Shown: in pieces, positions 9,369 through 60,561 of the stretch
Layout: each line of letters begins with the position of its first letter
How positions within the stretch are numbered: position 1 is the first letter of the stretch
Origin: Psammoneis japonica
Taxonomy: Eukaryota
Assembly: GCA_008632985.1 (NCBI GenBank)
Contig: QPGO01000008.1
Coordinates: forward strand, 1 to 64,000
Direction: 5' to 3'
Length of the DNA: 64,000 nt
The notes under the pieces: generated by a model
The model's input: the letters and a program-made list of their open reading frames with translations, nothing else
The model's database searches: none
Told to the model about the DNA's origin: nothing
Made by a program: the position numbers and the translations under genes

Positions 9369-9369
9369 G

Positions 9370-16289: not shown

Positions 16290-16299
16290 ATCAGCATAT

Positions 16300-28864: not shown

Positions 28865-29076
28865 GCCGTACTCGCATGGTGCTATTGCGGCTGAAAAGTG
28901 ATGACAAACCCTCTTTAGACGTACGGAGCTTTTTCTCTAGGAGAGAGTGGAGCACAAGTAATGTCGCCGGTGGGACTTCACGAAATGACGAGGTGGGACT
29001 ACGACTGCACTGTTTGGCTCTACCTTTTTGTTTAACCAGTATTTTACAATCGACTTATAACTTTGTTCTTCTTTTC

Positions 29077-31526: not shown

Positions 31527-31899
31527 TCGGTGCAAAATACAATGGAAGGCAGCGTTGAATATTGGGCGAAGAAGCTGCAGTGCTTTCGTGATGGCAAAAG
31601 TACTGTAATGGGCTATGCTGGAGCGACCTCGGGCGATTGGCGATACAAAAAATGTGACATGCTGGAATTTTAAGCACATTGGTCACTGAGAAACATGTCT
31701 GAAAGGCATCACCACTAAATGTTTCAGGAACCAAAAACCCAATGTGACTTTGTTATCTGATTTCAGTGGTCACAGGTCATTAATTCGAGTCGTCAAACGA
31801 CAACAGTCTTTTCGACGCAATGACTTTCCATCGGTCAAATGAATCACGTTCCCCCACTGGCTCAGCAGCATCAGAGCAAAAAGTGAAGCACGGGGCGGG

Positions 31900-32548
31900 G
31901 GTCAAAACTGCTGGGCAGTGCATTGCCTGTGTCAGACTCATGTTGGTGTGCAAGCCACAGCCACAGCAGCAGCTTTCGTAACATTTCCAGTGCTGCGCAG
32001 TTCTCCAACAGGAAGACTTTCCATGACACCGTGGTTTTTGGGTGGGCAAAGCAACGCTCACAATTTTTCACTGCGCCAAAAGAAACAATGGCAAGCGGAG
32101 CATTGACAGTGCTTCAGGTTTGTTGCTCCACTGCAACCACTGTCCTCAAACAAACAGCGTTGTGCTGTGCTTCTGGTCTGCAGCACTGAGCTCTGACTGC
32201 CCTTGTTTTGTTGAGCCCATTGTTTTGCTTTTTGTCATCCATGATTTTAAAACATTTTTTCCTGTGGTGTTGATGACAAGCCAGAGTCTGCAACAACTCA
32301 GCCAGCAAGATTCTTGTGAGAAAAGCTCAGCCATCTTTCTGCTGCCTGAGAGCACCACACTTCAGCTGCTGCCCAACAATTTGGGCTCTTGCGCAACCCA
32401 ATTTTGCCAGAAAGCAGCACTCAAAATGTGGCCATGTGTTGTCAAAGCATTGGCTCATCAACCAGGCAGGGGCACATCTCTTTGTGCACTGTTGCAGCAG
32501 TGCCAGGTGCCACATGTTGGGCACCAAATGCTGTGGCTCTTAAGTTGA
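31900..32548 (+). pseudogene. Eroded host-like gene remnant resembling the C-terminus of diatom LRR/RNI-like proteins
   Basis: LLPNNLGS...KMWPCVVKAL...TSLCALLQQ resembles L..N..G....LWP.VL....S.LY.LL after Tyr->Cys correction. Confidence 0.35.
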
Positions 32549-35500
32549 GGTGAAAGCACCTCCTCTCTTGGCTTTTGGGGGGTTTCTTGGACAGACACTT
32601 TTTCCAGATGCTGGCGGTGGCAATCCATGTGACATTGGGTCTGCAAAATTTTGTGTGAAATCTCCAGCTGCAGCAAAGTCCCCAGGTGATGAACACATCA
32701 ACAATTGCCAACAGAAAAAGAAGCAATTTGGCAAAAGCACAAACTCGTCCATGGTTGAAGTGCATCATCTCTCACTCAGCCTGGCACATTCTTCAAACAT
32801 TGAAGAATGCACTTGGCACATTGTTGTTCCCACAAAAGCACCAAACAAAAAGTCTTGAGCTTTGCAAAACAGGGAGTGTGGGACAATTCTGTGGAAGAGC
32901 ACATGGAGAATTGTGTGCGCGAAACATGCACGTGCAAAACACACGATGGATGACAAAAAAACAAGTGTGTCTCCCGCCTGTGGCTGGACCATGTCAACAG
33001 CCAATTTGGTGCATTTCAACAATGCATGGAACAGCTCCATTCCAACAACAAAATTTGAGCACAGCCTGCATTCCAACATCTCAGAAAGCATGCTCCAAGT
33101 GCATCTTCAATGTTCTCACAACTGCTTGCCACACAAACCCTTTTGATGGTGCAGGGTAAGCTGGCAGACTGTGTGTGGTCAAGCAAAGTTTTCAAGAACT
33201 CCAAGCGCAAGTCCAGAATGTGGGGGGGGGCACTGCAATGCTCAGCTGCATGCCCTGGCCACAGAAAGCAGAGCAGAGCATGATGAAGTCACCCCGCAGT
33301 TGGCGGCATTGCCTGATGCTGCTGAACGGAGAGCACCAATGGAGCAAAACAATGTGTGCATCATGGGGCATTTTGCAGCAGTGCTGCAATGTGGTGGTGA
33401 GTGTGCCATGCATTGTGTCACAGAGAGGCATCATGATTTGAGCACAGCAGCAGGAGAAAGAAAATCCTGGGAGTTTGAGTTTGGACCTCAAGTGATGTGA
33501 AACTTGGCTGGTTTCATGAGCACTTGGAAAAACACAGATGTGGTTTCCAACAACATCTTCAAGAATCCTCAGCTGGCTTCTGTAGAACAGTGAGCTCAGA
33601 GTTGCTCTTCTTGCCATTGCACAAAGAACACAAAGCTTGGCCTTGTGAAACATGTTGGTGCCTTGAGTGCACAGTTGCTTCAGCTGCCTGCTGAGTGCAA
33701 GTCATCAACTCTTGCCCTCATTTTGTGAGCTGGGTCTGCTGCAGCAGCAGCAAAAGATGCTGAGTGCTGACTGCACATGAGAGTTGCCACATGGGCCTCA
33801 CAGGGCTTGGACACTTCAGGTTTTCCTCTGTGCACTTGACTGCACACATGTTTGAAAGCTGGTTTGTTGAGACAAGCAAACAGGACTCCCCCCCCCCCGT
33901 CAACTCCAGCTGTGGCTCCAATGGGGAAGCAACATGCAATGCCAGCAAACTTGCTGTTTGTGTGCATGTGCCAAATGCCTGCAGAGTTGTGCTGGCCACA
34001 GCTCACTTTTTGTTTGCAGCTGTGTTGCACAAATGGTGCACCTTCAGAGGGCTGGCTGTTGCATCAAAGAGTGCACGCCAAATGCCTGCTGACACCAGCT
34101 TTTTTCCTGGAGGTTGCAAAGTGGCCTGGATTGCTTGATTGAGGTGCTTGTCCTCCAGCACCACCCACCTCACATCTGAGCCCTGAGCCCTCCCACAGGC
34201 CTTGTAAGCCTGTGGGTTTTGGCCCACTTTGGCCAGCAATCACATTCTCCATGTCCCACAGCATTTGAGGTCTGCATGTTTGGCTTGTTTTGGTTGCTCT
34301 CACTGACACTTGTGCTTCACAACTTGTGCTCTTTTTCTGATTTTGAACTCCATTTTCACAGATGATGTGAGAGGAGAAATGCAACAAGAAGGAGGGCTGG
34401 AGAGAAGCTGCACACCCACCTGGCCACCCATGTCTCCTCTCGTGGTGATGGCTCTGCCCCCCATTTGAAGAGCACAACATCTCTCCTGCCAAGCCTGCTG
34501 ATCAAGCCATCCCCTGATGTCCCAGCTTCTCATCTTCATTGCACACACAAAGCTTTGAGACATTTGTCAAGTGGCAGTGCCCCCCAACATCTCTTTTCAA
34601 GCAAGACAAGGCTGGTTTGGTCAGGACCAGATCAAGTTGAAGAGTGCACCTGTCTGAAAACTGTGTCTCTGCTTCACAAAAAAGGGTTCTGCAGCCTTTG
34701 TCACTTTGTTCCTGGCACTCTCTGTCAAGCTGAAGCTCAAGGCAGTCATGCAAAAGCTTTGGCAGCTGGCTCAGAGCATGCAACTGAATTGCAAAGCTTG
34801 TTGGATTGCAGCTGGCACCAAAAGCACATCTGCCTTGATTGTGCCATGTGTCTGTCATTTTGCATGTTTTCAGGGCACATCCATTTGCTCACACACAGTG
34901 AGGCATGCAATGATGGCCCCACTGACCATCTCAAATGTGCCTGAAAAATTTTTGCACATCTTCCAGCATGCATTTCTTGAAGACCTTCCTGTTTCTCTCA
35001 TGTTGGTCTTGACATCAACAGCAAGGTTGCTTGTGTGATCACTTTTTGTCATTGTCAGCCAAGAGGCCTGTTCCAGCTCCAGGTGCTCCGCTTTTCATCA
35101 TGCTAGATTTTCTGTGCAGTTTTCAGCTCCAGACATTTTTGTCTCCACCCAGCAGAGCTCGCACTTTTTGGCTTCATGCAAACATTGATTGCTCCAATGA
35201 TGTGATGCATTCATGACATTGATGCTCATGTGCAACAACTGAGGTGCACAATGCGTCACAGGAAGAATCATGTCAGTTGGCATTCAATGTTTTTCTGGTG
35301 ATGCACAGAACAATGCTGACCCATGCGAACACGTGCGGTCCACCCAACACACACCAGCCATGATGCAGCACACCGCTGTCACAGCTCCACAACCCCCTCT
35401 TCACCCTTGCGGTTGCATGAAACCATCTGTTCCTTTCATTTCAAAGTCACGTCATTGTCGTCGCAATGCGGCTGCGGCTCTAAAGAGTTGCTGTTGTTGC

Positions 35501-35740
35501 GGACAACACCATCTCTTCGCATTCTCTCGTTTCGAATTCGGCAAGTCGCTCTGTCGTGTTTTTTTTTGTGCGTCACCGCACGCGTGCATTTTTCTGGTTG
35601 CTTGCTTCTCACATCTCGTTTTGTGGTTGTTTTGCACCAGGGCCTTCGGAATTTCTACAAAACTCAAGTGTTCGCCCGAGCATTCTCCGAGTGACAGTTT
35701 CTGCTGGAACAAACTTGTCTTGGTTTGTTTTCACTGTGAC

Positions 35741-35991
35741 GCTTGCTGTTTGCACTTTTCAGCATCTGGAACTGCCTCAGAGGCTGCCTCTGTTCATCCG
35801 CATCACTTTTGCGGTGACTGACGTTGGCCCCCTCTCTGGAGTGCATTTGTCGTGCAAGCAGGCACGCAGCTTGCTGTTTGATGCTTTTCAGCATCTGAAA
35901 CTGCCTTGGAGGCTGCCTCTGTTCATCCGCGCCACTTTCGCGGCAACTGGCGTTGGCCCCCTCTCTGGAGTGCATTTGTCGTACAAACAGG
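35741..35991. repeat. Two-copy ~128-bp tandem duplication inside the transposon
   Basis: gcttgctgtttg...cagcatctg.aactgcct..gaggctgcctctgttcatccgc... at 35741 and 35869. Confidence 0.9.
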
Positions 35992-36014
35992 AGTGCAAAA
36001 GCAGTGCATTTGCC

Positions 36015-36857
36015 ATGGACATGTTGGCCAAAGTAGCCTCCCAGCAGCGTCCCATTGGCGGCACTTCCCCTCAAGCAAGCGATGACTCTTCCAGCACGTT
36101 GAAGGTTTCCTTTTGTGTCCAGCGTTGCATCAAGGCACTCACGGAACATTGCCCACCGCAGGGTGAAGCCAAAACTTGGTGCACTGTGCCTCTCCAAGAT
36201 GCAGCTGATCCCCTTGAGTGCCCTCAAGGTCTTGTAGATTTGAGCATCTTGACCACAGAAGATTGTGGAACAAAGAAGACGAGCCCTCTCTTTCATGTTC
36301 TTCATCACAAGAATGGTTTGGATGGGTTCAACAGCGCCAAAACACGGAACATGTTCTGCAACACTGTTGTTGATTGGTTTTGTGAAAAATTTGACTCCAA
36401 GAATCAACCACAACTGAACCAACACATCAAGGACAAGAACCAGCACCTCTTGATGTTGGTTGTGGTGCCATCAGGAATGTTGATGAGGGATGCCATGAAG
36501 GACAAGCAAAACATTGCTGCTGTTTTGATGCACTGTGTCAAGACAAACATTGGCCTGCTTGTTGATTGCGTCCGTGTGACAGAGTCTCTGGTTGTGTCGG
36601 TTGGGACGGGCAATGAGAGTGAATCAATCACACCGTTGAGTTGAGGTGCATGTCCTTTTTTGATTGGACTTGCCCAAGCCATTTGCTGTGGTGTTGTCAA
36701 GAAGATGGATGCATGTCTTCATTGTCAGAAGACTTTGAAGTCTCACTGCATTGGAGTGATGGGTTTTGAGGACATCACGGACACCATGAGTGATCGTTCC
36801 GACCTGGCGGACGTCCGCAAGCACTGGGACTGGGATGATCTCATGATGAATGATTGA
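36015..36857 (+). pseudogene. Transposon cargo ORF, possibly GNAT acetyltransferase-like; one in-frame TGA at 36642
   Basis: LLVDCVRV...S*GACPFLIGLAQAI...LKSHCIGVMGFE; after Tyr restoration it resembles GNAT motifs A and B (..YY..MGF). Confidence 0.35.
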
Positions 36858-37344
36858 TGCAACACTGTTGCCCTGTGTGCAAAGGAGAGGATTGCTCCAA
36901 TGAGCTCTGCAATTGTTTTGGCATTGCCTCATTCCAGCGCTGAGTGTCAGAACGTCGCAACAGAGATCCGCAAGAATGAAGACTGTTGGGAGGAACCGCT
37001 TGTTGAAGGAGGATGCATTGCTGATCATTCGTGCAATGCCAAGCACTGATTCCACTTGGCATCTTTGGTCAACATTCACAACCTAGAAACGTGTGATGAT
37101 GAAAAGTCGACCAAAGATTTAAAGACGCGTCTTTTGGCTGCCTTTTGGCGAGGCCGTGTTTCAAAGTTGGTGGCAAATTAAGTCTCCAAAGGGAGTGAAG
37201 AACAATTTTGAAATGTTGGCTTTGAAGGGGTTGCACGTCAAGTTCTGCTGTGAAACAAGACATCCTGTTCTATCTGCAAAACAGCGCTGGGGTTCAATCT
37301 GCAACCATTGCTCTGTTCCAAACTAAATCGCTCAGAGGAAGCAG

Positions 37345-39650
37345 GTGGACGAAAAGCTGCGTCGAAAGCCACGCATCAGCCACAAGAAGTTGAAGAAAAT
37401 TGTGGATCACAGCGACGATTGTGTTTTTCATGACGAGTGTTGCAAAAGGGAGAAGCTTGAACAGCCAGATGATGACATGCAGGAAGATCCCTGCATTCCC
37501 GAACTTCCCACCAACTCACAATGCAAAGTGCTCACAAGTTGCACGAGTGGCTGCCGGAGGATTTTCTCATTTGGGCCATGCGACCCCAATGACAGACTGC
37601 CATCCGAGGCCTTGTTTGACATCATTGCAGGTTGGCGGCACAACCATGTGTTGCGGATCACCTCTGATGGTGAATGCAGAGGCACCGCTTGTCCGCTGGA
37701 CCAGCGGTGCAAGCCTTTCAAGCTGTGATGACACTCCATCACCGAAGACAAACACATGTTTGAAGTTCACTTCCCCGCCGGACCAAGCAGGAAGGACTGT
37801 TTCAAAGAGCCGCTTGCTCACCTTGCTGATTGATGCAAGGCAGCTCCTGGACTTGCATGGTGCAAGTTTTGCAGAAGGATCCGTTGCCATCGTCACATGC
37901 ATCATGCTGGTGCCTGTGATGCAAGGTTGAAGGAAGAGGTGAAGGAGGAGGAAGAGGAAGAGGGGAAGGAGGGCAAGGAAGAGACGGATGACCTGCAAAA
38001 GGCCGAGGCTGGCACTGCAAGGTTGCAACTGCGAGACAAAACCCAGGAGGAGGAAGATGGGGCCATGGATCAATCGCCTGAGGAAGAGGAGGAAGAGGAG
38101 GAAGATGACGGTGTGCAAGACGAAATCCAGGAGGAGCAAGATCCAGAGGAAACTGAGGATGAGGAGGAAGATGAATGCAAGGAAGAAGTTTCTGCAGCTG
38201 CAGAAGAGAAGAGGGAGAAAGCCAAGGCTGCAAAAGAGAAGAGAGAGAAAGCCCCGGCTGCAGAAGAGAAGCAGGAGACAGCGGGGGAGGCTTTTTGCAG
38301 ACGCTTGCATCAGCTTTTGAAAGACATCACTGGAGTGCATGAGGATGAGGATCTCATTGGCCTTTGCAGCTCTGTCCCAAAACCAAGGCCAAAAGGAGAC
38401 ACTTCATGGCATCGGTTGACCAAAGAGCAGCAACACCAACAAGAAAGGGATCGACTCAAGCGTGAGTGCGAAGACGCTCAAGTGATGTTGCAGGTTAAAA
38501 AACTCATTTGGATTGATCCAAGTAAATGGAACAGCAGGTGTCAGCATCCTGGCAATTCCGAAGGAGCCGTTCCTCACTTGTTTGGTTGCTTTGAAGGGAA
38601 AAACAAGGATGTCATGTTGTGGGAACAATGGTTTGACGTGCGATGCAATGAAATGAATGGCCATCCCATGAACATGTGTGCGGACCTCATTTTACGTGCC
38701 AAACACAAACCAAACAATCCCCAGCAACTCAATCGAAAATGCAGGGATGAGATTAAGAACAAGGTGGAATTGATTTGCAACCCACCGCAGATTGCCAAAC
38801 TGAAGAGATTGACTGAAGCAGAGATTCAAAAACTTCCACCTGTTGGGTGGGGAGCTGATTTCATTGGCCACAGCTTGGAGGGGAACCGTCCCATGTGTGC
38901 AACCCTGGATTGGGCTGAGTGCAAGTTTGAGTTTCGGTTTCCAGATGTGTGGAAAGATTTGAAAGAATTGAAGCCATTGGATGGTTGTTGCTCCTTGCCG
39001 GAAGGAAACGTGTTGATGCCATCGAACAGCAACTTGCCGATGAGCGGTCCACCTGTGAAATTCCTGCAAGGACAAAACGACACTTGCGTTTTTTCCTCCT
39101 TGGCCAGTGTTCTTGATTGTGCTGGTGACATGGAAATGAGAGACTGCACTGCTTCTCACATTCAAACATCTGCCAACTGTGCTGACACTGACAACAAGTG
39201 CATGTTGTTTGCAAAGAACATGTTGAATGGTCGTTTGAAGGGAAAATTCCCGCCTGAGAACTCAAACATGAAGTTTTGCGGCAGTGTGGATCAAACGATT
39301 TCCCTTGCAGCAGGTGGTGAATTTGACATGACGACCTGCAATGATGACTTCACAACTTTGTGCTGTCTTGTGAACAACCACACTGCATTGCCTTGCACCG
39401 TGGATGGATCTTTGATTCCAACCACCCTTTTGCATTGCCAGCAAAGGACATTGAGTGCTTGAATTGGTGTCTTGGGAACAAGGAACATGAGATGAAATGC
39501 ACGGTGAAAAAGCGTCTGCAACAAGTGTTCATGGTGCACCAGTTCAAACTTCCTGGGGAGGTGCAGCAGAAGTTGCACGCAAAAAGGAAAGCTTTTGTGT
39601 TGGACGGCATGATGCAAAATGACACAATCACAGTGTTTGTTCATTGTCCC
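37345..39650 (+). pseudogene. Transposon cargo ORF: acidic Glu-rich region plus papain-fold/C39-like cysteine protease domain
   Basis: QGQNDTCVFSSLASVL (Gln, Cys), then HCIALHRGWIFDSN (His, Asp) after a frameshift near 39375. Confidence 0.5.
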
Positions 39651-39659
39651 ATTGCCACT

Positions 39660-42566
39660 TCATTTGTGTGAATCATCACTGTCGCTGTCCCCTGCCGTGC
39701 TCTCATCATCCTCCGCAGTGTCTTCCATGTCGTCATTCTCTCCCCCCCACTCACCAGCTTTGATGTCTTGTTCCTCCACCTCATCCAAACAGTCCTCAAA
39801 ATGATCCATTGCCCCCCGCTGTTGGATGGCATCCAGAATTCCTTCATGCGTTTCATCACTCAAATGACGTGGATGAAGAAGTGAAGCCTCGTTCCTGTTG
39901 CACGTGCTTGGCAGTTCCAGATTGGCCAATGGTTCATTGAGCTCAATGTCGGCAATTGCAATTTGCTTGAGCAACACTCTTGTCTTGCATTCCTCAGCAT
40001 CACCGGGAGCGCACCATCCTCTGGCCCGTGGAACAGGGTTAAGATGCATTCCCTTGCAAACCCATTCACTGGCCTTGGCAGTTGTGGGCATGTCAAACTC
40101 TTTCCACACCTCGTCCTCCTGTGATTTGTGGAGGAGTTCATCCCATTGCAGCAGATGGAAGCCCTCCTCAGATTCACAAGGCAATGCGGCACAGCTGTTT
40201 GGAACAATTTCCTTGGCCATTTCCTCAGTCAGGAAGTCCAACACAGATTTGTGAACCAGCTGCACCTCGTCGGCGTCACTCTCATCTGTTTGAATCACCT
40301 GACACACTTGCCAATCATTTGTCCCCTCAAAGATGGGCCACAGTTTGCAAGCTCGGTTGCCACCTGCATGTCGTGGCTGCTCTGTTGGCTTGACATTTTT
40401 AACCCAAGGCCGTTTCAGCTGATCCAGGCAGGCTTCACAAGCACAAGGAATTCTTCGCATTGCAACCCAGCCAATGGGGAAAAGAGGTTCAAATCAGAAA
40501 TGGCACAAGGCTCCAATGCCACAATGGCATGTGTGCACTTGCACCAACCCAATCAACTTGACTTTGATTGAAGAGCCAAGAACTTTGTCAGCTTCCTGCA
40601 GATGACACACCCTTTGCATTGACTTTCAAAGGGATTCCCTCTTGGCATGTTTTCTGTCACCAACTGTGCCGAAAGCATTCTTGTTCTTTGTGACCATTTT
40701 TGCAACATTCCTTTGCACAACTGTGTGCGGCTGCAACACTGTTGTCATCCATGACCAAAGCTTCAGGTCTAATTTTCCCATCCCTGTCATTGACTCCTGC
40801 AACAGTTGAGTGATTTGATGTGGGCTCCAATGCCATCAACCTCTCCTTTGCCATGTCCAGGTGCTCCAATGGCACGGTCAAACACAATGTTGCATTTGTG
40901 TGCAAAGACAGACAACAAGTGCAGTGCCAAAGCACATCGGCATTGTTTGGCACAACCATCAGTGTGATCCCAAATCACAAGCCACGCCTTGTGCAGGTTG
41001 TGGTTTTTTAACCAGGTGACAAACTTTTCCAAGTGAGCATTGGTGGTGGTGGCATCTTGTTTGGAAGAGTCAGAGAGATGCGCATGATGTGTTTTCTGAA
41101 GCTCATTGTCAACCATTGCATCGCAAACTCTTCCTTTGATTGACAATGTTTGGTTGTTGCCACAATGGTCACCCTGAACTTGGTTGTTGAACTCTGCCTT
41201 CTGATGCTCGGAGCAGTCATGAGACATGAACAGGCTGTTGGGTGTTGACTCAAATGCTTTGTGGCGCATTTCCATGCAATGATTTTTCCCAAGAATGACC
41301 GCGTGGGGAAGGTGGCAGTGGAGCTTCTTTAAACTTGGAATGCAGTGCTCTTTTGTAAAGACACTGACTGGTTTTCGGAACCTTGTCAACAAGGTCCCAC
41401 GTTTCACCTTTGCATCCTTGTTCCCATCTGGATCTGCCTCACAAACAGGACATGCTTCCATGCACACACCATGCTTGGAACAACTTTTTTACAGTTGAGC
41501 AACGTTGAAACAAAACTTGGGGTGCACTGGGACTTTCATTCTGTTCCAACAATGGAGTTGGATGGGATGGGATGATCCTGACCATTGACATTGCCGCAAA
41601 TGATGGTTGCAACTGCATCTCGGGCTTTGGGATGAAGGTGATGGCCGTTGGGGCCAAACGCCTCCTCTTGATGGACACGCATTGTTTCCTCCAATTTGCC
41701 AAGGGCACTGTCACAGTTCTCCAAGTTCTCAGGATCCTCACTTGCAAGCTTCAACCGATTTTGCTCCACCTCCATCTCTTTTAAAAGCTTCCTTCAAAAC
41801 CTGTTCAATGCATCTTGTAGAAAATTGGCGTTGGTGCAATTGCTGCATTGACACATGCTGCGTTGACTTGCTTTCATTTTTCGACACTGCTTGGGAATCA
41901 AAAATCAAAACATCGTGTCGCTGATGAGGGTCTTGCCATTGGCATCACGTGCATGTTTGAATCCGCCAACAGACACAGGCTTCAACATGTCATTGTGCAG
42001 CTCACGTGTGGACACATTGCGCAACCATTTGTTCACTCGTTTCTTGTTTCCATCTTCATCTTTGCTGAGAATCATGTCTCATGTGTTGGGAGACTGCACT
42101 GTGTTGGGATGATTTGACAACCAGTGCACAAATGCCTTTCGGATCTCAGGGGAAACTTTGTGAGGATGCCGACGGGGTTGCACTGAAGACCACATGACAT
42201 CGTCAGTGTTTGAAATCAATGCCTCTCTGGCAATCTTTCCCTTCTTCATTTGGCGATGAACAGTGCTCTGTTTCAGGCCAAGTGCCTTGGCATGGTCATG
42301 GGAAGACAACTTTTCCTCTTCATCAGATTTTTCTGGTGAACCGGAGATTCCAGTTGCCAGAGCACGGACAAACGATTTTTTGTCGTCGGCGAGGTGTTGA
42401 CCATTGCTGGCATCATTGGCACGTGCCCACATTTTGCCCAACTGCTTGGCAATTTGCAAGGCTGCAGAATTTGTTTTGGCAATGTCAAATTGCAAGCCTG
42501 AAGAAATGGGGCTAACTCGGGAAAATGCAAAGCATGCACAAACGCACAGATTTGTTGTTCTTGAGT
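39660..42566 (-). pseudogene. Sola-like transposase, fragmented; the N-terminal part may continue beyond Copia-2 at ~49748-50370
   Basis: DCSE..NQVQGDH, DHTDGCAKQCR, GHGKGEVDGIG and RRIPCACEAC correspond to D(F/Y)SE / DG..QY / HGKG..DG motifs. Confidence 0.72.
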
Positions 42567-42571
42567 GGTGG

Positions 42572-42765
42572 TGTCAGCCCATCTGCACCTGTCGCATGAT
42601 GGACAGACTGGATGCGGATGATGGCTGGACCATTTGGATGGACAAGCAGATCTCTCTGAGATCTGCTTCTCACTTTCTCATCTGCTGGCACTCATGTCAT
42701 CACAGTCCTGGTGCTCCAGGGAGTCTTTCACACCTCTGTCACTGTCGACCTTCGGCATTCTGTCA
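42572..42765 (+). repeat. Copia-2 5' LTR (194 bp)
   Basis: Direct repeat of 49550-49742. Confidence 0.95.
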
Positions 42766-42777
42766 GGTTGTGGCCAC
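42766..42777 (+). promoter_or_regulatory. Putative PBS GGTTGTGGCC (cf. copia half-tRNA-iMet PBS GGTTATGGGCC)
   Basis: Directly follows the 5' LTR; TA appears as TG. Confidence 0.65.
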
Positions 42778-42943
42778 ACGCTGTGCCACAGACCTCTGCG
42801 CCAAGCTTTCTGTCTCGATCCATTTGTTTTGTGAGCCGATCAAGCGAGCCTCATCATCTGATCCGACAACTTTTTGTCTCGCTTTCCCGGCATTTTTCAC
42901 GACCGTAGAAACACGCCAGATTTCCACGCGTGCATGACCAAAA

Positions 42944-48900: not shown

Positions 48901-49372
48901 TCAACTCGTTGCTTTCTTGGATGCTGCTTGTGGCAATGACCTCCGCAACCGTCGTTCTACGACTGGCCATGCTTGCATGTCAGCTGGTGCTGCCACATCT
49001 TTTCGATGCAAGACCCAATCGGTGACCGCTGCGAGCTCTACGGAAGCTGAATTTTGTGCTGCTGGAACTGCTGCCAAGCATGTCCTGCACCTTCGTCACG
49101 TTCCACAGGACCTGGGCTTCCCTCAGACGGAGCCAACCCCGTCACACATTGACAACGAATCGGCGATCAAGATCATCAATCACTCGATCCTGACTGAGCG
49201 ATCCCGTCACATTGAGATTCAGTTTTTTGCGATCCAAGAATGGAAGGAAGCGGGCAAGATTGTCACGAGACATGTTCCTGGCATTGTCAACCCCAGCGAT
49301 GACCTCACCAAGGCCCTTGGCTGGGTGCCACACGCTCGCCACGCTTGACGCATGATGGGACACTGCTGTTGA
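42944..49372 (+). pseudogene. gag-pol: Copia-2 gag-pol (CLVCSGEHLFDDC zinc knuckle, PR, IN, PDZ-like domain, RT, RH); in-frame TGA at 46694, 47762, 48632 and 49346
   Basis: Collinear ORFs 42944..43534, 43778..44992, 45014..46696, 46709..47764, 47927..48634 and 48650..49348. Confidence 0.92.
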
Positions 49373-49540
49373 CATTTTTTTCCACGGTGGCCTCCCTGCT
49401 GCGCATTGCCCTCTTGTTTGATGGCGTGTTGGGCATGGACACTTCTTGCGTCCTGTGTCTGGTCTCTCTGTTTTTTCCTCACATCATCCCTGTTCTTTGG
49501 TTTGATCTGCACTGTTCTCTGTGTTGAGATGTCACAGATC

Positions 49541-49549
49541 AGGGGAGGG
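49541..49549 (+). promoter_or_regulatory. Polypurine tract AGGGGAGGG of Copia-2
   Basis: Directly precedes the 3' LTR. Confidence 0.85.
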
Positions 49550-49742
49550 TGTCAGCCCATCTACACCTGTGCATGATGGACAGACTGGATGCGGATGATG
49601 GCTGGACCATTTAGACAGACGAGCAGATCTCTCTGAGATCTGCTTCTCACTTTCTCATCTGCCAGCACTCGTGTCATCACAGTCCTGGCACTTTGGGGAG
49701 TCTTTCATGCCTCTGTCACTGTCGACCTTCGGCATTCTGTCA
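49550..49742 (+). repeat. Copia-2 3' LTR (193 bp)
   Basis: Direct repeat of 42572-42765. Confidence 0.95.
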
Positions 49743-52283
49743 GGTGGTGCAAGACAACACTCCTTCTCTCACTTTGACCGCTGCACAACAAAGTGCCTGC
49801 TGGGGATCTTTGTGGGTTGCTTTGAATGCATGAGGATTAAAAGTGGGGCAACCTTGGGAGGCGGTGAGGTTGACAGCAGTTCAGTTGGCCGAAGTGACAG
49901 GAGAGGGAGTGACGGCGGCATTGTCAGAGTTGGGGTTGGAGGGAGTGGCAGCCACTCCTGCAGTGTGCATTTGGGAGGGGCTTGGCTGTCTTGGCAAGGA
50001 CAACCCTGGACAATGAGTGGGGTGTTCCTTGGAGGTGTTTGGGTTGAAAGCCTCCAGGTCAGTGGGAGCAACGGAGGGAGTGACGGAGGCAGCAGGGCTC
50101 GGGTTGTTCGGGCTGGAGGGAGTGGCTGCAGCTCCTTCAGCTGCAGCAACGACATGGGCAGAGACCGTGGAGTGTGTTTCAAGTTCACGATGAGGCTTCT
50201 TGTTTTTGCTGTTGCCAGTCCCTGACTTGTGTTGACGGCCAACTCCATTTTGCTTCTTCCTCTTGTTGCCCACGATGCACTGGAAATTTGATTGAAAGTG
50301 TGCATCGAGAGGGCTGGTGAATGAGACGGATGGCAAGTCGAGAGAACACACATTTTTTTGGCATGCTCAATCAAATTAACTGTGTTGTGTCTGCAGAAAT
50401 GAGGTGTGTTCGGACGTCAGTTGAGTTGAAGAAGACCAAACACACGAGCTCCGAAAAATGAAAAAGTGAGTGATCACGAGCATTTTTCATGTGGAATGGG
50501 ACACCAGCCGAAAATCACATTTGGCACAATCAGCAAGTCCTTCATTTTTGATCATTTCGAAAATCGAAAGGCAAGTGCACACCCGAAAACACATGTAAAG
50601 TGTGCACTTGCCCTTCGATTTGGCAAAAAACAGATTTTGAAAAAGTCATTTGCGCTGAACCTAAAAATGGGCAAATGATGGGAATCGAACCCACGCGGAG
50701 CACCTGGAGCTGGAACAGGCCAAGAGGACAATCCTCAAGGCAAGCCACTTTAAGCTGGAAGCACATCTGCATCTTCCCCTGGCTGTGTGAGCACAGGCAC
50801 TACTCCTGCTTGCACAGCAGCACAGTTGTCAGCTTTACAAAGCTGGGTGAAATTGAGCAAGGAAGCCCCCTGCCTTGCTGGAGAAGCTTGCTGCCCACCT
50901 CTCCTCATGGCAGCTTGTGTGCATTTCAACAACTTGGCCCAACAAATTTTCAACAGAAGCCACTTTTCTCAAAGATGCCAAAAAAGTAAAGCTGCACCTT
51001 TGCCATGGTTGCCAGGAGCACAGTTGCTCTTCAATGAGCATGCCAATGCTCTCATGTTCGACACTCGTTTCCTCATTTTGCCACCCCAACAAAATTTCAG
51101 ACATTTGATTGCGCTGAATTTCTTGGCTCTCAGAAATGCCTTTGCAGTGTTCCTGGATGCAGACCCAGAAGCTGAGGTCTTGTCACCTTGTTGCATGAAG
51201 GTGATTCAGCCATCAAGAACGCCTCCAGTTCCCCACCACATCATCGGCACTTTGAAGTGTGGGTGAAGTGACAGCCATTGCCACAGCCCAAATGAGGGCG
51301 CCGCTGACATCACTGTGTCAAATTGGCAGCAACCCATTGTCATGACACATTTGCTGCTCTTCAGTCAAGAAGCACAAACAGCTCTGCACAAAGTTTCCCT
51401 GCCCTTCCAGAACACCAAACAACAGCCTTCATCACTCACTTTTCATTGACCATCCTCCTGAACCCACCCAGTTTTGTCACATGCTGGGGGCCCCACAGAG
51501 AGCATCTTTGAAAAAACCTCTGCACATGCAGAGCTCATGAGAGCCATTGTTTGGTGTTTTTGGCACTTCAGGAAGAGCTGCACAGCACACAGCATCTGTT
51601 CCACCCAAGTGGGCTTTTTTTCAAGTGCTTTGGATTTTGCAGTCTTTGCAGGGGAGAGCATCCAAGTGGCAACAATGCTGGGCTGGTGATGATGGCCAAG
51701 TTGAGAAGTTTGGTGCAAAAGATGTGCCACCAAAATGAAAAGAGGGTTGATTGCACCCACCCCATTTTTCATTGATGCCCCCCACTCCTCTCCAGATTCC
51801 AGGTGGTGCAGTGTTTGGGGGGCCCACAATGGCAAAAGCGTGCTTCTCTGTCCTGCCTCTTTGATGGGTGCTCAAGGAGTGCTTTGTGCAAACATCAAAG
51901 AAGGTGCATTTGCGCACTTTTCCAAAGGTGTTTGTCTTTGCACAACAGCACTGAGTCTCTGCTGAGTTGATGTGCAACCAAAGATTTTTGCCGTGCCTTT
52001 GCCAGGCTCATGTGACACAATGTGCCTCCCCCCAACTGCAAGAGTCTTGTTGTTGGGCCACCACATCTGTGAATTCAAGCTGTGGGAACAGCAAAAAAGA
52101 AGAGCACTTTCTTTGCTGTTGCCACTTGGCACTGCCTCTTGTCTCTCTTTGGCCATTGTCAAAATTCAACAAATCCTTGGTTTCTTTGCTGTGTTGCAGA
52201 TGGCTGATCAGATTTGGCAAAAATCACCTGTGATTTTGGTGAACTGCAATCCCAGCTTCTGGGTCATTTGGGTGGGTTGGACA

Positions 52284-53530
52284 CCAAAGTTGCAAACTCA
52301 TGACAGTTGACAAAAGTTGACAAACTCGTCAAAGTTGACAAAGCTGACAAAGTTGGCAAACTCACCAAAGTTGAAAAAGTTGCCAAAGTTGACAAACTGA
52401 CCAAAGTTGAAAAAGGTGACAAAGTTGACAAACTTGCCAATTTTGCCAAAGTTGCAAACTTGTCAAAGTTGACTGCACGGGTCTGTGGGAAATCATGTTT
52501 TTGAGCAAAAAACAGAGAATCTCTGTGAGTTTTGACTGTTTGCAATGCCAACAGCGCAGCCGCACGCACTTTTTCTGCATGATGAGCTCGTGCGTTTTTG
52601 ACACAACTTTGACACAACTTTTGACACAAATCAAAGTTGTGCTGCAGTTTTGAAAATGCACATCTGGGCATTTTTAGAATTCCTGCAAGACTTCCAGTGA
52701 AAAAATCTGCACAAAAAAACACAACCCGGGTGTGCATTTTGAAAGCTGTGCCACACATTTTGAAAAATGCACATGCAGGTTCTTTTGCATGCAGAAGTCT
52801 GGTGCATTCCCACATGACACAAAAGTTGGGACATTTTCAATTGTGCACATCCGGGTCTTTGTTTCTCACAGTTTTTTGAATCAAAAGTCGTGTCTAAAAA
52901 TGTCTTTTCTACGAGGTGGTGTCGGCAACAAATTTGTCTTGTCTGACAGATTTTGTGCTGGCAGGCACAATTCACATCAATTTTGACATGCAGGTGGCAA
53001 AAATGGCAATTTCCCACAGACCCTGCAACCAAAGTTGACAAAAGCTGCCAAAGTTGGCAAACTCACCAAAGTTTAAAACAAGTTGCCAAAGTTGACAAAC
53101 TTGCCAATTTTGCCAAAGTTGAAAAAGTTGCCAAAGTTGACAAACTCATCAAAGTTGACAAAGCTGACAAAGTTGGCAAACTCACCAAAGTTGACAAAGT
53201 TAACTCACTCACCAAAATTGACAAAGTTGCAAACTCATCAAAGTTGACAAAGTTGCCAAAAAGCTGACAAAGTCGCCAAAGTTGACAAGCTCACCAGAGT
53301 CAACAAAGTTGCGAACTCATCAAAGTTGAAAAAGTCTCCAAAGTCACCAAAGTTGACAAAGTTGGAAAACTCACCAAAGTCAGCAAAGTTGCCAAAAAGA
53401 AAAAGTTGACAAACTTTTCAAAGTTGACAAAGCTGACAAAGTTGGCAAACTCTCCAAAGTTGACAAAGTCACCAAAGCTGACAAAGTCACCCCAAAGATG
53501 CCAAAAGCTGCAAACTCATCAAAGTTGCAA
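52284..53530. repeat. Degenerate 9-bp minisatellite (CAAAGTTGA/CAAACTCAC-type), split by a MITE
   Basis: Arrays at ~52284-52473 and ~53029-53530; KVDKLTKVDK translation periodicity. Confidence 0.88.
52479..53023. mobile_element. ~545-bp non-autonomous TIR element (MITE-like)
   Basis: 15-bp perfect TIR GGGTCTGTGGGAAAT (52479-52493) / ATTTCCCACAGACCC (53009-53023) interrupts the 9-bp array. Confidence 0.75.
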
Positions 53531-56500
53531 AGACGTGCTCCAGCCCCAGGTGAAGCACAAAACGGCAATCCATTTGAGCGCAAATGTTGCGCACTTTGTG
53601 CAAGTCCTTGTGGGATGTGCATCACAAAATTCCTCAGCAGACTTGGCGCTGATTGTGCGACAGCACTCAAGGCACAGCAAAGCCTTTTGCAGGCAGAACA
53701 CATGCTGAAAACATTGCAAAAACATTTTGTGTCAATGTCCGCACATTTGATGTGAGCATCTTCAACTTTTTTGCCAAAAACATCCACTGTGTTGCAACTT
53801 GCTTGTTGCAATGAAAACATTGACAGCATGAAAAACAGTGGTGTTGCAACACTGACACGTGTCTTGTTGGTGTTGCATGACACAAATCTGCACTTTTGGC
53901 AACAAAAGATCTTTTGCAAGTCAGAGACCATGCAAAAATCACACAAATGTTGTTTTTGCACATGACTTGGTTTGCGCATGGCTGGAGCATGTTCAAAGAA
54001 GTCAGCAAAGTTCTTGACAAAGCTGGCTGCAATTTTTTAATTTGGAAATGGGTGCATTCAGCGAACATCAAGTTTGAGTTTAAAATTTCATTGCTTGGGC
54101 ATTGATGTTTGACATCAATGGCAGGATGTCAAACAAAGTTGATGATGCAATTGTCATTTCAGACAATTTGTCAATGAAACAGTGGCTGCAAAACAAAAGT
54201 CAATTTTGGCAGCATGTTGATGACACTGTGGCATTGAATGAAATGGCTTGAAATGACAAGACAATGGCAGAATGCAAAGGAAATCCCATCATCACACTTT
54301 GCAAGACACAAAAAGGTGATCATTGTCACATCAATGAAGAGAAGACCATGCCAAAGATGCCACAAGAGAAAACAAAAGAAAGGCAACATCTGGTCATGAG
54401 GTGAGCCCAAGGTTGCTGTCAGCATTGGAGCAGACAGGATCAAACGGAGGGCACAAAGCATCTGGTGGGGCCACAATCTGAGATGCACACAAGCATGACA
54501 ACATTTCTGTTGCCATGGTTGGTTGGCATGAAGACTGCCAATGTTGGTGCCCATGAATTCATGGCACAATCTTGCAAGTTGACTTGCAAGTTGAATTTTC
54601 CAAAACAATCTTGTCACCTGCTGCTGGTGGCCTCAAATGTTGCTTGGTTGCTGGGTGGTGCGGGTGACATCTGAATGGTCAACAACATTGCCTTGGAAAG
54701 TTCTTTCTGTGCACTCTCATTTTGTGCCATTTGTCTGCTCACCAAATGTGTTGTTTGTGCTTTGTCAGAGTTTGAACGGTGAACACATCATTTCATGTGG
54801 TCGATTTTTGCTTTGATGGATCCAGGCATTTTTTTTAACTTTGTCGTCATCACAAAAGCACGCCCATTTGCTGGGAGCCTTGAGCTTCACCCCGCCACTC
54901 TCTGCGTCCTTTGGCAAATCTTTTTGTGCTGTTCATTTGGACTTGTGACAAGCTTGACATGTTTTTGGAGGTCTTGGTTGGCTCATGATCACATGTTGTT
55001 TTTTGGCAACAACAATTTCTTGAAAGTGTGCGCCGTGGGAACAAAACATTGTGATGGAGCCTTGGAGACACCTGACACCTGTGATGTTGGTGTTTGTCAG
55101 ACAATCTTGTCACAGTCAAAAGACAATGCTCCTGTGAGCACATTGTGATTGGCTGAGTTTTGGACTTGTTTTGACAAAAATTGCGCGCCTCATGAGCAAT
55201 TGATTTGTGTCCAGTTCATGTGTGCAGGTGGTGTCTGGTCCATGTGACCCTTTCTTCCTGCTTTGCAACCACACTTTCTTCATTGTCTAACACATGACAT
55301 CACCTGTGCCATTTTGGAAGATCTGGGCAGTGTGCTGACAGGTTGAAGCTTTGCAATGGGCAAAATGGAAAGGTGGAGGCTTGTGCTGCGCCAGGCTCCT
55401 CACCCGATTTGTGGATGCACTGCACTGCCGGCAAAGTGCGCACCTTTGCAAATGATGACTTGCTGATCTTGCTGATCTCAGGTGGAGACAAAATGTCTCT
55501 GGCAGATTAGAAAAAAACTGGAACAGAAGGCAAGCAGTGATTGAGAAGTTGCACATTGTGTGTTCTCTTTCAGCCCAGTTCATTGTTCTTCTTGACCTGT
55601 GTGCAGGTGACTTTGCACCGGCCGGCGCTGGAGGATGATGCAAGCGAAACAGTGGTGTTTGACACCACAGTGCAACTCCATTGAATTCCAGTTGAAGTCA
55701 ATCTGAAGCAACCCGAAGCTTTCAAATCCTTTCTGTTGTGACTTGATTTGCTCTTTCATGTCTTGACTGATTTCTTTGGATGGAGTTGAGGAATGAAGAG
55801 CATTGCCAATGTGCTTGGAATCAGCAAATACTTTGCTCTGGAGCAGAGCTTGGCGCAAAAGGCAAGAGATCCATCATTTGTGATTTTTGACTTGTTTCAT
55901 CATTTTTGGCGTTGTCTGATGAAAAGTTGGACAATCCATTTAAATGACTCACAGCATTTTGCTGTTTTTCAGAGGTGTGATTGCACAGCTCTTGGCACTC
56001 CAGTTTTCTTTAGAGCAAGATTGTTGCATCACATGTCCTTTGTGCAGCTCTTTCACCATGTAAACCAAGCTGAGTGCAAACACTGCATGGCATTGTGAAC
56101 GGAAATCCAAGCAACTGTTGCACGCAGGAGATGCAGCAGACAGACAAGGAGGGAGAGGAGGGCCAAAAGCATGGGAGCCCAGATGACAAAAGGAGCGCAA
56201 CAAGTTCCTGGCCTGAGCTCCATGACTGCGCCCAATTGTTGAACAGCAAGAATCAAATTTGAAAAAATTGGCATGCAAAAAGTGGCAGTGTCATTGTTCT
56301 TTGTGCATTGCATGCAATGGGCAGTGACATTCAAGTGCAATTCTGCATTGCATTCATTGATGTCATGAAATGGGCAATTTGAAAAATTTGGCATTCAAAG
56401 AGGAGAAGTAAAAAACAAACACAATGATGTGCTGGCTGGCATGATTGGCCTCAGGCAAATGCAGAAAAATGAATCTTGGGTGTGCAACATGATGTTGCTG

Positions 56501-59480
56501 TGCTTTGTTGTCGTGCTTTGTTTGTCAGGCATTTGAAGCAAGATTCTGAAAGAGATGTGCCTCCCATTTTCAAAAACCAAATGGTGACATCATTGGCAAA
56601 GTTTCAAGAGTGGCGGCGTTGGCGTTGTTCAAGGCCAAAATGTGGAAAGCAGTTTTCATGACAATCTGGTGCATTCATGTGCTGTGCTTGCTGTTTGTGC
56701 ATTCATGTGCTTGTTGTTTTTTTGGAAGTGCAACACTTGCTGTCCATTTGTTGGATGCTTTGTCATCCAGATCGACATCATCCAGGACAGCATTTGATGT
56801 TGACGGATTTGCCCCCACTGCTCAAAACTGTGCAAATGGGAGCTTGGCATGGCACCAATCCATGCTCCATTTGGCAATGGCCCACCGTTTTTCAAGGTGT
56901 GTGTGTGAAAAGCTGCTTGCAATGCAATCCGATGCATTTGTGTGATTGCGCATTGTCATTTGTGTGCTCTCAATGGTGCCGACAGAACAGCGCTCATTCT
57001 CAGCCACTTGGTGTGGTGCTGGCAGAACAACGAGAAATTCCATGGGACCCGGTGCATTCGTGTGATGGTGCCAGTGGAACAACACCCACCCTCAATTGCC
57101 CATTGTGGTGCAGTCAGAATGACACTCACTCCAAATTTGTTTTGAATGTTTCATCATGTGCAGCATGTCGACATCACCCTGGGATGGCATTTGACGTCAA
57201 CCGATGCACCCCAAGTGGTCAACACAGTGTGAATCAGAGAGTTGAAAAGCACCCTGTTCTTTTGCAATTGCCCGATCATGTGAGTGCAGAGTGCCATCTT
57301 GATGTCCTCTCATGATTGCAATCTGGCAAGTGTGGTTCATGTGTTGTGCACTTGTTGTGTTTCTGGCAGAATGCTGCTCACTCTCATTGCCTTGACTGCT
57401 TCATCATCAAGGACAACAAGCAGCGGCCAAGGAGCTTGGTGGCACAAATGTGCAGGCAGCTGAGCGGCAATGTTCATTGGCAAACAGCACATGATGACAA
57501 CAGCAAAATTGACCAGCCAGAATGAACAGCTGTCAGATTAGAGACAGGATGTCATTTGAACATCAGAACAAGGTTGGCTTTAAAAAAGCAAAGTGGAGTT
57601 TGCATGTGATGTGAGTTAATTTGTTGCATGGTGAGAAGAGGAGTGAATGGAAAGCAACACATCACACGGTGAAAAGCGACCAAGTGTCACACTTGAAATG
57701 TCAGGAACATTGTCCGCATGGACACTGCATTTGAAATTTCTTGCACAACATGCCAAAAACATTTTTGCACATTGGAACCAAGATTTCCAGCATGGCGTGC
57801 AAGAATGTTTAAATTAAAATCAAAAATTTGTTGGCACGTCGGGCAAGGAGAATGCCGTGCGCGCGTTTGCGTGTGATGTCAGATTGTTGCCCCACTGGAC
57901 AAGCACTGAGGAAAAAAGTGGAAGAGGTTGCAAGGAAACAGCTCTGTTCAAAGGCAAAGTTCCTTGCAAAGGCAGATGTGTTGAGCAGTGGAAAAGTGTC
58001 ATGGCCAATGTGGAAGAACATGGCTGGTGGCAAATTTGGCCAGGAAGACTGGGCAGGGATGTGGGAGCAAAGGCTGGGCAAAGAGGCATGTCCTGAGCAC
58101 CATCAATGCAAAAAGGAACACAACATCACACAGATGACAATGAAAAATGAGCTGAGTGGCAAGTGTTGCAGCCTGATGCTTTTCCAAACAGGGGTTGAGA
58201 ACAATGATGCCAACACCACGTCTGTTTTTTTGTAAAAAGCTGTGATTGCAGAAGAGCCATCTCCAGGGAATTGCTTGAGGAAAACAAGGGTGGCAGAGAC
58301 ACATCCAGGACAGAGGCAAAACCCCAAAAAGGGCAGAAGGAAGAGAATGTGGGCTGTGCCCATTGAAGAAAGATTCGTGCTGACTTGGAAGGACAAGACT
58401 GTGAAGACCATTGTGGATGAAAAAAGGAGCAACAAGGAAGCACATGCCAGGTTCTAGAACAATGCAGCAAAATTCTGAAAAAGCACTGCAATGTGGAGAA
58501 AATGGCTGTGCCTCAAAAATGAATCAGATGACAAAAGCAGCCAGCTCTGTGAGTTGATGCCTGATTTTTAGCATGGTCTGCCCCCCTGATGCCCGCGTTG
58601 CCACACACAAAGTGTGTTGGCTCTGCAAAAACAACAAAGCCTGGAGCTCCAGCCAACTGTGAGGTTGAATTTTGCAAGGGGGGGGGGTGGACACTCCTGT
58701 TGCAATGGAATGAAATGAACTGGACATTCAGATTGGGTCAGCAACCTTGCCAAACCACGGCATGTGATGCTCTGCTGAAGTTGTGATGCACGGCCCACCC
58801 ATCCCAAGGGAGGGCATTTCAATGGCCCCAACAAGTGACCAAACCGCTGTTGTTCTCACTCACTTCCTCAACAACTTTCCCTCTGTTTTCCAATCTTGAG
58901 TTTTTTGGCTTGACATTTTCCCCGACTTCGTTGGCTTTTTGGCGCACTCTTCCTCATTGTCGTTGTTGTGTGGGCGCAGTTGGCTTTTCATGCACGCACG
59001 CCAGCATCTCACAGTTGGCTGATCCGGACCCCAAAAAGCTTGTGCAGGAGGGCCAATGAGCAAATTTCAATTTTGTTTTTGCAGGTTTGTCAAGGAGCAC
59101 CATCTTGCACTTTGTTGCCCATCATCATTCGTGTGTCACTCTCAGCAGACTGCATGGATGAGAACAAGGAAGTGGGGTGAAGAGATTCCAAATCACAAGA
59201 CGCTCATTCAACTTTGAACAACATCTCGAATGCCTTGCAAGACTAGGCAGGGTGACATGCGGTGCCGATCACATCCTTGGCGGGAGAAAAGCAGTGCGTA
59301 GCGAGGCTCGAGTGCATGATGGAGGTAGCTACCAGGCGATGTGATTCCGGAGGACCACCAAGGGGCCCAGCGCGCTGCAAACAGCATCACAAGCTCACGT
59401 AATATTCACATCAACAAACTATACTAGTTTCGATAAAAACAATTGCACTACTACTACTATTTCTACTACTAAATACGTCA

Positions 59481-60239: not shown

Positions 60240-60561
60240 GGTTGTTGAAGAGAGTGTTGTTGTGTGGTTGAACTTTGTTGGGACGAGCGATGCATGGTGC
60301 GCGCACACAACAATCGCACGCGCGCAGAACGAAACACGACATCCGCACGTCTGCCCACGATGACTTTACGTAGATCTCGTACTGACGTAGATTCAACGTC
60401 CAAATTCCGTACGAACTTTTATGACGTCATTGTGACACATGACGTTGCGTGCGACGCGACGAACAAAAAAAGTTGAATGAGTTCAAGTTCAGAAAGAACG
60501 CAATGAGAACCGGCGACCGCTGCAATACCTTCTAGCTTGCAGCAAACAAAGAAGCAAAATC

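Follow-up and report, generated by a model that had tools for sequence, protein, structure and literature searches.

A TpA-erased block of nested repeats in a diatom genome suggests RIP-like hypermutation directed at A:T base pairs

Introduction

What removes nearly every TpA dinucleotide from 27 kb of chromosomal DNA and then stops abruptly, a few hundred bases short of the neighboring genes? This question is raised by the first 64,000 nucleotides of contig QPGO01000008.1 of the diatom Psammoneis japonica (GenBank assembly GCA_008632985.1, forward strand; hereafter the window), in which an initial annotation noticed such a domain and attributed it to a chromatin state that spreads until active genes stop it. 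Here we describe this domain, which is the second of two in the window counting from the left, and the mutational process that it records. To our knowledge, mutational silencing of the repeat-induced point mutation (RIP) type has been regarded as a cytosine-based process confined to fungi; full-text searches of non-subscription literature turned up no account of a hypermutation that erases TpA, whether in diatoms or in other organisms. Our analysis leads us to a reading that we regard as probable: the erased blocks are nested repeats that were hypermutated in place by a RIP-like process, directed to repeats or to heterochromatin, that turns A:T into G:C.

Results

TpA is erased from two domains with sharp borders

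The edges of the domains were called by binary segmentation on the likelihood of P(A given T), the probability that a T is followed by an A. Change points fell at 13,200 (log-likelihood gain 265), 31,784 (131) and 59,244 (200). Within the second domain (31,784–59,236), A comes next after 97 of 7,202 T (P = 0.013), as compared to 757 of 5,184 (0.146) in the non-erased interval 13,200–31,781 and 182 of 1,199 (0.152) in 59,244–63,998; the corresponding values for the first domain are 0.026 (5–8,623) and 0.004 (8,627–13,198). The window holds 1,098 TA in total, 97 of them within 31,900–59,200 and 62 within 1–13,100, and the observed/expected ratio (o/e) of TpA per kilobase is 0.00–0.15 in the bins 32,001–58,001, 0.00–0.18 in the bins 1–12,001, and 0.40–0.77 in all others.

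The borders have 2-log-likelihood support intervals of 31,754–31,831, 59,186–59,299 and 13,085–13,200, which places each edge to within some 100 bases or less. This confirms the 27-kb domain and the coordinates given for it in the initial annotation, as well as the statement that TA loss continues outside a transposon which it called Sola-like (the terminal inverted repeat, or TIR, element described below), by 3.28 kb to the left and 8.52 kb to the right. The annotation also had TA returning within ~250–350 bp of genes; the proximity holds at all three borders, at distances slightly shorter than claimed, namely 258 bp from a putative ATG at 31,526, 237 bp from the end of the eIF2-beta open reading frame (ORF) at 59,481, and 224 bp from a putative ATG at 13,424. 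The three values are nearly equal although two of these coding ends are 5′ and one is 3′. Such near-equal distances suggest that the barrier goes with the transcription unit rather than with the repeats. Borders coinciding exactly with the termini of transposable elements (TEs) were named in the annotation as a finding that would count against it; self-comparisons of the window found no repeat or TE terminus at the domain borders.

CpG is depleted inside the domains as well, within limits of its own. On the right, there is not a single TA in 58,570–59,243 and TA is back beyond, and CpG already returns inside this border, from ~58,880 (P(G given C) is 0.125 in 58,881–59,243 vs 0.037 further in). 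On the left, CpG is normal up to ~31,900 and then falls to the lowest levels of the domain (Table 1); at the border of the first domain, it is normal from ~13,100. Thus, at all three borders, TpA loss reaches 100–360 bp beyond the CpG-depleted zone.

The missing TpA has become TpG and CpA

Expected dinucleotide counts were scaled by the o/e values of the window's non-erased parts. Measured against them, the second domain is short of 958 TA and 912 CG, and TG is in excess by 920 and CA by 797, the gains (+1,717) amounting to 92% of the losses (−1,870); its o/e values are 0.05 for TpA, 1.66 for CpA and 1.73 for TpG, with CpG at 0.03–0.75 per bin. Because gains and losses nearly balance, two transition processes converge on TG and CA: ordinary CpG decay and a second process that is specific to TpA. 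The gains of TG and CA are of similar size, and both strands are thus hit about equally.

The copia retrotransposon nested in the second domain gives this change its direction. Its polyprotein frame (43,778–49,348) has 0.3% Tyr, 4.8% Cys and 6.1% His, as compared to 2.4, 2.4 and 1.9% in four host ORFs. We aligned this frame with nine diatom copia homologs, which are 37–48% identical to it: at 10 columns with a conserved Tyr, the window copia has Cys at six, His at two, Phe at one and Tyr at one, while four of the homologs, used as mock queries, retain Tyr at 8–10 of 10–11 columns and show Cys or His at none. Moreover, T precedes all seven Thr-to-Ala changes and 11 of the 12 first-position A-to-G changes in the window copia. 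TpA loss is thus a real directional mutation, from TpA to TpG or CpA. The TA that survive in the window are 8.2-fold enriched in TTAA and absent from ATAT. At position 44,121, T is present in every one of the 24 other contigs that align from the copia family, giving TAA, and the window reads CA there, which fits TA followed by A as the most resistant context.

TpA loss outpaces CpG decay, since a second copia element, in the first domain, has a CpG o/e of ~1.0 and a TpA o/e of 0.13–0.18. Two pairs of long terminal repeats (LTRs) were compared over 186 and 202 aligned bases. Of their 26 mismatched bases, 24 either are TG/CA discordances or set TA or CG against TG/CA; three sites have TA in one LTR and TG/CA in its partner. 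LTR and coding evidence together date the change to after insertion. Variation among the units of the 23-bp satellite of the first domain revealed no ancestral TA. The erased DNA is reproduced by contigs of the sample (run X1), which match it with 0–1 differences over 417–3,990 bases.

Environmental relatives of the copia element carry the same signature

Scanning metagenome contigs with the copia alignment yielded 80 loci, of which six have a TpA o/e of 0.15–0.31 and 74 one of 0.43–0.86. Several depleted and non-depleted loci are copies of one family, 82–95% identical, and can be compared site by site. In one such comparison, between the depleted L042 and its relative L021 (95.4% identity), the 56 TA of L021 correspond in L042 to 22 TG, 12 CA, 21 TA and one other dinucleotide, and there are no changes in reverse. 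Sorted by the preceding base, A has become G at 22 of 56 sites after T, as compared to 3 of 102 after A, 1 of 118 after C and 1 of 105 after G. In this pair, ~61% of TA have been converted at ~1.4% other divergence; together with the values for the copia of the first domain, this shows that the rate of TpA change far exceeds background and CpG decay. The same asymmetry is seen in L071/L019, L071/L023, L027/L029 and L036/L019 and also in L050/L029, and it holds in all four other comparisons of a depleted with a fuller copy that have a TA-rich reference, while exchange is roughly symmetric in two pairs of loci with normal TpA.

Pooling five pairs revealed that the base 3′ of TA matters, with converted fractions of 0.35 before C and 0.38 before T vs 0.16 before A and 0.21 before G, and that the base 5′ of T has no influence. 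Runs tests for strand-coherent tracts of TG or CA were not significant, the choice between the two being random along a copy. In L027, 59 of the first 62 TA are converted, followed by ~3 of the next ~40. This locus is erased over ~2.6 kb (200–2800) and abruptly has normal TA at 2800–3711, within the coding region; it represents either a real, sharp internal edge away from a TE end or a chimeric assembly.

The second domain is a nest of repeats

The features of the two domains are collected in Table 1. The second domain is a nest, made up of a 15.7-kb TIR transposon, a copia element inserted into it, tandem arrays and decayed repeats. In the transposon, a 4-bp target-site duplication (TSD) accompanies the TIRs, as it does in the Sola superfamily. 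It is a high-copy element: 21 contigs diverge at its end at 50,721, and summed depth over 42.0–50.7 kb is 2,600–6,200 vs ~60, or 45–100 times single copy. Its ORFs include a 542-codon frame with a long acidic tract (37,834–39,459, plus strand) and one of 386 amino acids; another, at 40,790–41,488 on the minus strand, resembles DUF7869 clusters of animals, rotifers and haptophytes as judged by language-model features (0.94–0.96).

Table 1. Features of the two TpA-erased domains and of the adjoining gene.
Feature	Position	Strand	Basis or remark
Second TpA-erased domain	31,785–59,243		segmentation by P(A given T); central finding
Left flank, TA-erased, most CpG-depleted DNA of the domain	31,785–35,064		P(G given C) 0.022–0.051 from 31,901
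TIR DNA transposon	35,065–50,721		perfect 27-bp TIRs 35,065–35,091 and 50,695–50,721; 4-bp TSD AAGA
Nested Ty1/copia	42,572–49,742	+	194-bp LTRs 42,572–42,765 and 49,550–49,742; 5-bp duplication GGTGG
Right flank, mosaic of multi-copy and single-copy DNA, wholly TA-erased	50,722–59,243		contig depth bins
Single-copy stretch between repeats	51,339–52,005		depth 61.2; TpA o/e 0.00; CpG o/e 0.17
Tandem arrays, units of 9, 18 and 27 bp	52,285–53,490		summed depth 1,030–1,366
140-codon open frame containing RKKVEEVARKQLCSKAKFL	57,813–58,232	+	relatives found with phmmer; DNA at 2–5 times single-copy depth
Single-copy margin, TA-erased	58,676–59,243		depth 59.1; 12.6-kb contig from 58,012 into genes
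First TpA-erased domain, 23-bp satellite interrupted by Ty1/copia	1–13,199		leaves the window at its left end
23-bp satellite, >140 units	5–1,100 and 9,260–12,316		split by copia insertion
Ty1/copia of the first domain, approximate limits	1,678–9,130	-	LTR-like repeats 1,678–2,066 and 8,529–9,130; RVT_2 match
eIF2-beta gene	59,481–60,308	-	Pfam eIF-5_eIF-2B, E = 2e-35; 3′ end 237 bp outside the right border

The nested element is a Ty1/copia LTR retrotransposon by its LTRs, its 5-bp duplication and its domain order: the polyprotein frame, which contains six stops, matches Pfam gag_pre-integrs, SH3_retrovirus and RVT_2 in the order of copia, and its homologs carry PF13976 and PF25597. X1 contigs join 42,568 to 49,750 without the copia and therefore represent other copies of the host transposon with an empty site. 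P(G given C) rises from 0.02–0.06 in the flanks to 0.12 in the TIR element, 0.16 in the copia and 0.21–0.26 outside the domain; judged by CpG depletion, the flanks are the oldest part, followed by the TIR element and then the copia.

Most of the right flank is repeated DNA

As a proxy for copy number, we aligned the sample's own contigs to 42,001–62,000 at ≥80% likeness and summed their word depth; the single-copy level, taken over genes, is 59–72. In consecutive 667-base bins of the right flank (50,672–59,342), the summed depth is 2,151, 61, 1,031, 1,203, 1,366, 304, 885, 294, 144, 174, 298, 134 and 59, so that 11 of 13 bins are multi-copy, at 2- to 36-fold single-copy depth. The two others, 51,339–52,005 and 58,676–59,342, are single-copy, with exactly matching contigs of depth ~60 running through them; the former is spanned by a contig of 1,664 bases (50,695–52,358) with 0 differences. 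Both single-copy stretches are erased (the latter up to the border at 59,243). The initial annotation was therefore right that TA loss extends past recognizable TEs, in part into DNA that is single-copy at ≥80% likeness, but a view of the flanks as mainly unique, gene-like DNA found no support: most of the right flank is multi-copy, and ORFs in the flanks are no longer than chance. The longest have 192 (left) and 218 amino acids (right), as compared to 210 ± 45 and 237 ± 47 in 200 dinucleotide-preserving shuffles, a fraction of 0.6 of which reach the observed lengths; in the TIR element, the copia and the genic region, ORF lengths exceed those of all shuffles. Flank ORFs are long because TAA and TAG stops have been erased.

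Eroded gene-like frames, which the annotation had also reported in the flanks, found mixed support. Among 97 stop-to-stop frames (31.5–43 and 49.5–59.5 kb), Pfam searches gave sub-threshold matches (best E = 0.0076) and none at the curated cut-off. The ORF at 32,027–32,545, reported as the tail of a leucine-rich repeat (LRR-type) protein, has no homolog at E ≤ 0.001 among proteins of near length and no Pfam match. The 140-codon frame with RKKVEEVARKQLCSKAKFL fared better: among 1.84 billion representatives, phmmer found three unnamed relatives (P0139, E = 6e-10; P0140, 1.6e-4; P0141, 5e-4), small proteins lacking an assigned function that align with it in frame over ~90 residues. This frame is real coding sequence and belongs to a very rare family of small proteins. 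It could be a host gene or the passenger of a mobile element, either being possible. Its best-scoring match, P0138 (BTRD1, 10 stretches), was set aside as a summed weak repeat match.

A self-comparison of the window with its letters collapsed to purine and pyrimidine found no further flank copies above a reversed-sequence control, the TIR pair being the only new result. In the small run X2, a short repeat of the right flank (54,832–55,059) is represented at the very high depth of 1,940 by a diverged copy, which over 228 bases has 34 differences and 11 gaps; the unaligned flanks of this copy have normal TA, and it may be a non-erased or extrachromosomal relative. Run X3 yielded no aligned contigs.

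The window as a whole is diatom nuclear DNA; the closest relatives of the eIF2-beta ORF are diatom proteins (76–83% identity). Rfam and tRNA scans of the 64-kb window gave no matches. In the first domain, the copia element includes a run of 214 N (5,509–5,722), which is an assembly gap or a masked stretch, and the translated satellite mimics the Pfam model "grass antifreeze beta roll" (E = 5e-10), which we rejected as a repeat artefact.

Discussion

Direct observation covers the direction of the mutation and its TpA context, the involvement of both strands, a rate far in excess of background, the presence of the signature in further copia copies from the environment and the multi-copy nature of most of the right flank. 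These findings probably reflect hypermutation of nested repeats in place. In outline, a near-saturating, context-specific process would turn TpA into TpG or CpA by A:T-to-G:C transitions on either strand, underlain by a slower decay of CpG to TpG or CpA of the cytosine-methylation type. Its targets would be repeats of all kinds, presumably heterochromatic, among them satellite, LTR retrotransposons, a TIR transposon and low-copy repeats in decay. From these it would advance for some hundreds of bases into the single-copy DNA that separates or adjoins repeats and stop abruptly 224–258 bp from coding ends; targeting may run through silent chromatin nucleated by repeats.

As to chemistry, an A-to-G-like and a T-to-C-like change are inseparable by sequence, because TA is its own complement. 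The most likely route would be enzymatic deamination of an A lying 3′ of T, preferably in 5′-TAY, giving hypoxanthine, a base that is read as G; if instead the T of TpA were made C-like, the sequence outcome would be the same. We favor adenine deamination, since a preference for T-A-pyrimidine would resemble that of TadA/ADAT-type adenosine deaminases, whose tRNA anticodon substrate presents the adenosine in a UAC context. A further step would be to see here a dedicated defence of some diatoms that mirrors RIP, in which a chromatin- or repeat-guided enzyme makes the A of TpA G-like (or its T C-like) in double-stranded chromosomal DNA and is kept from genes by a sharp boundary; to this we give about an even chance.

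Taken in its pure form, the reading of the initial annotation would have a mutator act on whatever lies in a silent block, bounded by transcription units, without sensing repetition at all. In this form we think the idea unlikely, even though a gene-fenced chromatin domain is compatible with the data and may be right: both single-copy stretches of the right flank are fully erased, the borders are sharp to ~100 bp or less, show no gradient, lie 224–258 bp from three coding ends and contain no TE terminus, and conversion in L027 stops abruptly inside a copia copy. However, every erased block seen is built around high-copy repeats, L027 is possibly a chimeric assembly, and spreading nucleated by homology explains the data equally well, because every erased single-copy stretch lies within ~0.7–1.2 kb of repeated DNA, a range of repeat-nucleated spreading in Neurospora in the account given by 10.1101/115501. 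Considerably less probable is an origin with no dedicated system, in which a lesion arises at TpA spontaneously or through light, or T or A is modified in a mutagenic way, and repair takes place in genes but fails in silent chromatin. Repair of this kind, if coupled to transcription or to open chromatin, would agree with sharp limits at transcription units, partially converted copies exist, and erasure rises with the age of the element, from a TpA o/e of 0.13–0.18 in the youngest copia to 0.00–0.07 in the oldest flanks. Against such a lesion stand the conversion of 61% of TA at ~1.4% background divergence (L042/L021), a loss of TpA that is faster than CpG decay, and the 74 of 80 related elements elsewhere that keep a TpA o/e of at least 0.43; moreover, the strict T-A context and the preference for a 3′ pyrimidine are not known to be features of spontaneous adenine deamination.

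Editing before integration, by A-to-I deamination of the ADAR/ADAT type on retrotransposon RNA, and an artefact in which modified bases misled sequencing or assembly are largely refuted, and we regard them as very improbable. RNA adenosine deaminases typically change A to G with a preference for a 5′ U or T, but here erasure extends to a DNA transposon, a satellite and single-copy DNA, both strands are affected about equally (TG +920, CA +797), and the LTRs of one element differ at such sites. Modified bases can likewise give systematic miscalls on some sequencing platforms, but X1 contigs reproduce the sequence exactly and the signature recurs in unrelated metagenome assemblies. APOBEC-type editing was rejected on account of the affected DNA transposon, satellite and flanks and of the A:T-to-G:C direction; avoidance of TA by selection and GC-biased gene conversion were also rejected, as neither has a TpA specificity that could change sequence as fast as the comparisons of LTRs and of paired copies show.

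Several points weigh against hypermutation directed to repeats as we have described it. The edges have no visible gradient, which a fixed barrier fits better than leakage that decays with distance. Fungal RIP is more strand-coherent within a round than the random choice of TG or CA seen here. The polarity of the change in the window depends on homologs that are just 37–48% identical, and ancestral CpG also yields TG/CA discordance, so that the LTRs by themselves are no proof of TA loss after insertion. X1 is possibly the assembly data of the window itself and hence not independent of it; the environmental contigs lack an organism assignment and their assemblies are possibly chimeric, and one pair, L042/L031, shows little asymmetry (10 vs 5), because L031 is itself partly depleted. 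The depth comparison covers 42,001–62,000, with the right flank as the only flank, and as a proxy for copy number it would make repeats more than 20% diverged appear single-copy. Finally, we infer heterochromatin from CpG depletion and repeat content only, and the acting enzyme is putative.

If a dedicated, TpA-directed counterpart of RIP in diatoms is borne out, it would be the first system like RIP to be found outside fungi, and nuclear DNA would have its first natural mutator directed at A:T pairs. Irreversible mutational defence against mobile DNA would then have arisen repeatedly in evolution and by different chemistries. It would also indicate a hitherto unknown activity that acts on chromosomal DNA by deaminating adenine or by modifying thymine, of relevance to the enzymology of base editing. 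In a short evolutionary time, such a system would erase the TAA and TAG stops, Tyr codons and AT-rich signals of transposons, and it would explain why diatom repeats can look like long ORFs and mislead gene finders, two of the three stop codons having been erased. TpA o/e could then serve as a sequence-only marker of long-term silent chromatin and its boundaries where epigenomic data are lacking, and the sharp limits, 224–258 bp from genes, make what stops the spread directly testable.

How does this process compare with known systems? With the decay of methylated CpG, it shares its products, TG and CA, and CpG loss is also present in the domain; diatom TEs are CpG-methylated according to the passages of Hoguin et al. 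(2023; PMC9998398) drawn on here. CpG decay by itself is expected to have no effect on TpA, whereas here TpA is removed to a comparable extent (−958 vs −912 for CpG), faster, and 100–360 bp further out. A cytosine methyltransferase cannot account for a change of A:T, and this includes DNMT4, whose RID-related genes are carried by diatoms and have no assigned function in the same passages (PMC9998398).

The change from A to G with a strong preference for a 5′ T or U is like hyperediting by ADAR or ADAT, or the action of engineered TadA-derived adenine base editors. Unlike the process described here, which affects both strands of chromosomal DNA within domain borders and includes repeats of a non-transcribed type, those enzymes act on RNA, or on DNA only if engineered, and the features of editing through an RNA intermediate (action before integration, on the transcribed strand, on retroelements only) are not those of the erased domains. 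With APOBEC, the process shares a context-specific hypermutation that disables mobile elements. Unlike it, APOBEC changes C to U on cDNA before integration, leaving G-to-A or C-to-T changes that are common to both LTRs and sparing DNA transposons, satellites and flanks.

The closest likeness is to fungal RIP, which also is a dinucleotide-specific transition hypermutation, inactivates any repeat in place, acts on both strands and leaves compositional blocks. RIP targets duplicated DNA; within 42,001–62,000, the interval 42.0–50.7 kb and 11 of the 13 right-flank bins are multi-copy and two bins are single-copy. Spill into single-copy DNA between and next to repeats, which is seen here, is also like the heterochromatin branch of RIP (DIM-5/DIM-2), which in Neurospora spreads from repeats into linker and adjoining single-copy DNA, as described by Gladyshev and Kleckner (bioRxiv 10.1101/115501). 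The host, a diatom, and the apparently random choice of strand at each site are unlike fungal RIP, and the chemistry is its inverse: RIP destroys CpA and TpG and makes TpA (C:G to T:A), so that raised TpA with lowered CpA and TpG defines it, and the opposite is seen here, with TpA destroyed and CpA and TpG made (A:T to G:C). RIP acts before meiosis and depends on homologs of cytosine methyltransferases, RID or DIM-2; an enzyme of this type cannot explain a change of A or T. What would be new, then, is mutational silencing that is RIP-like in its action, inverted in its chemistry, and found in a new lineage.

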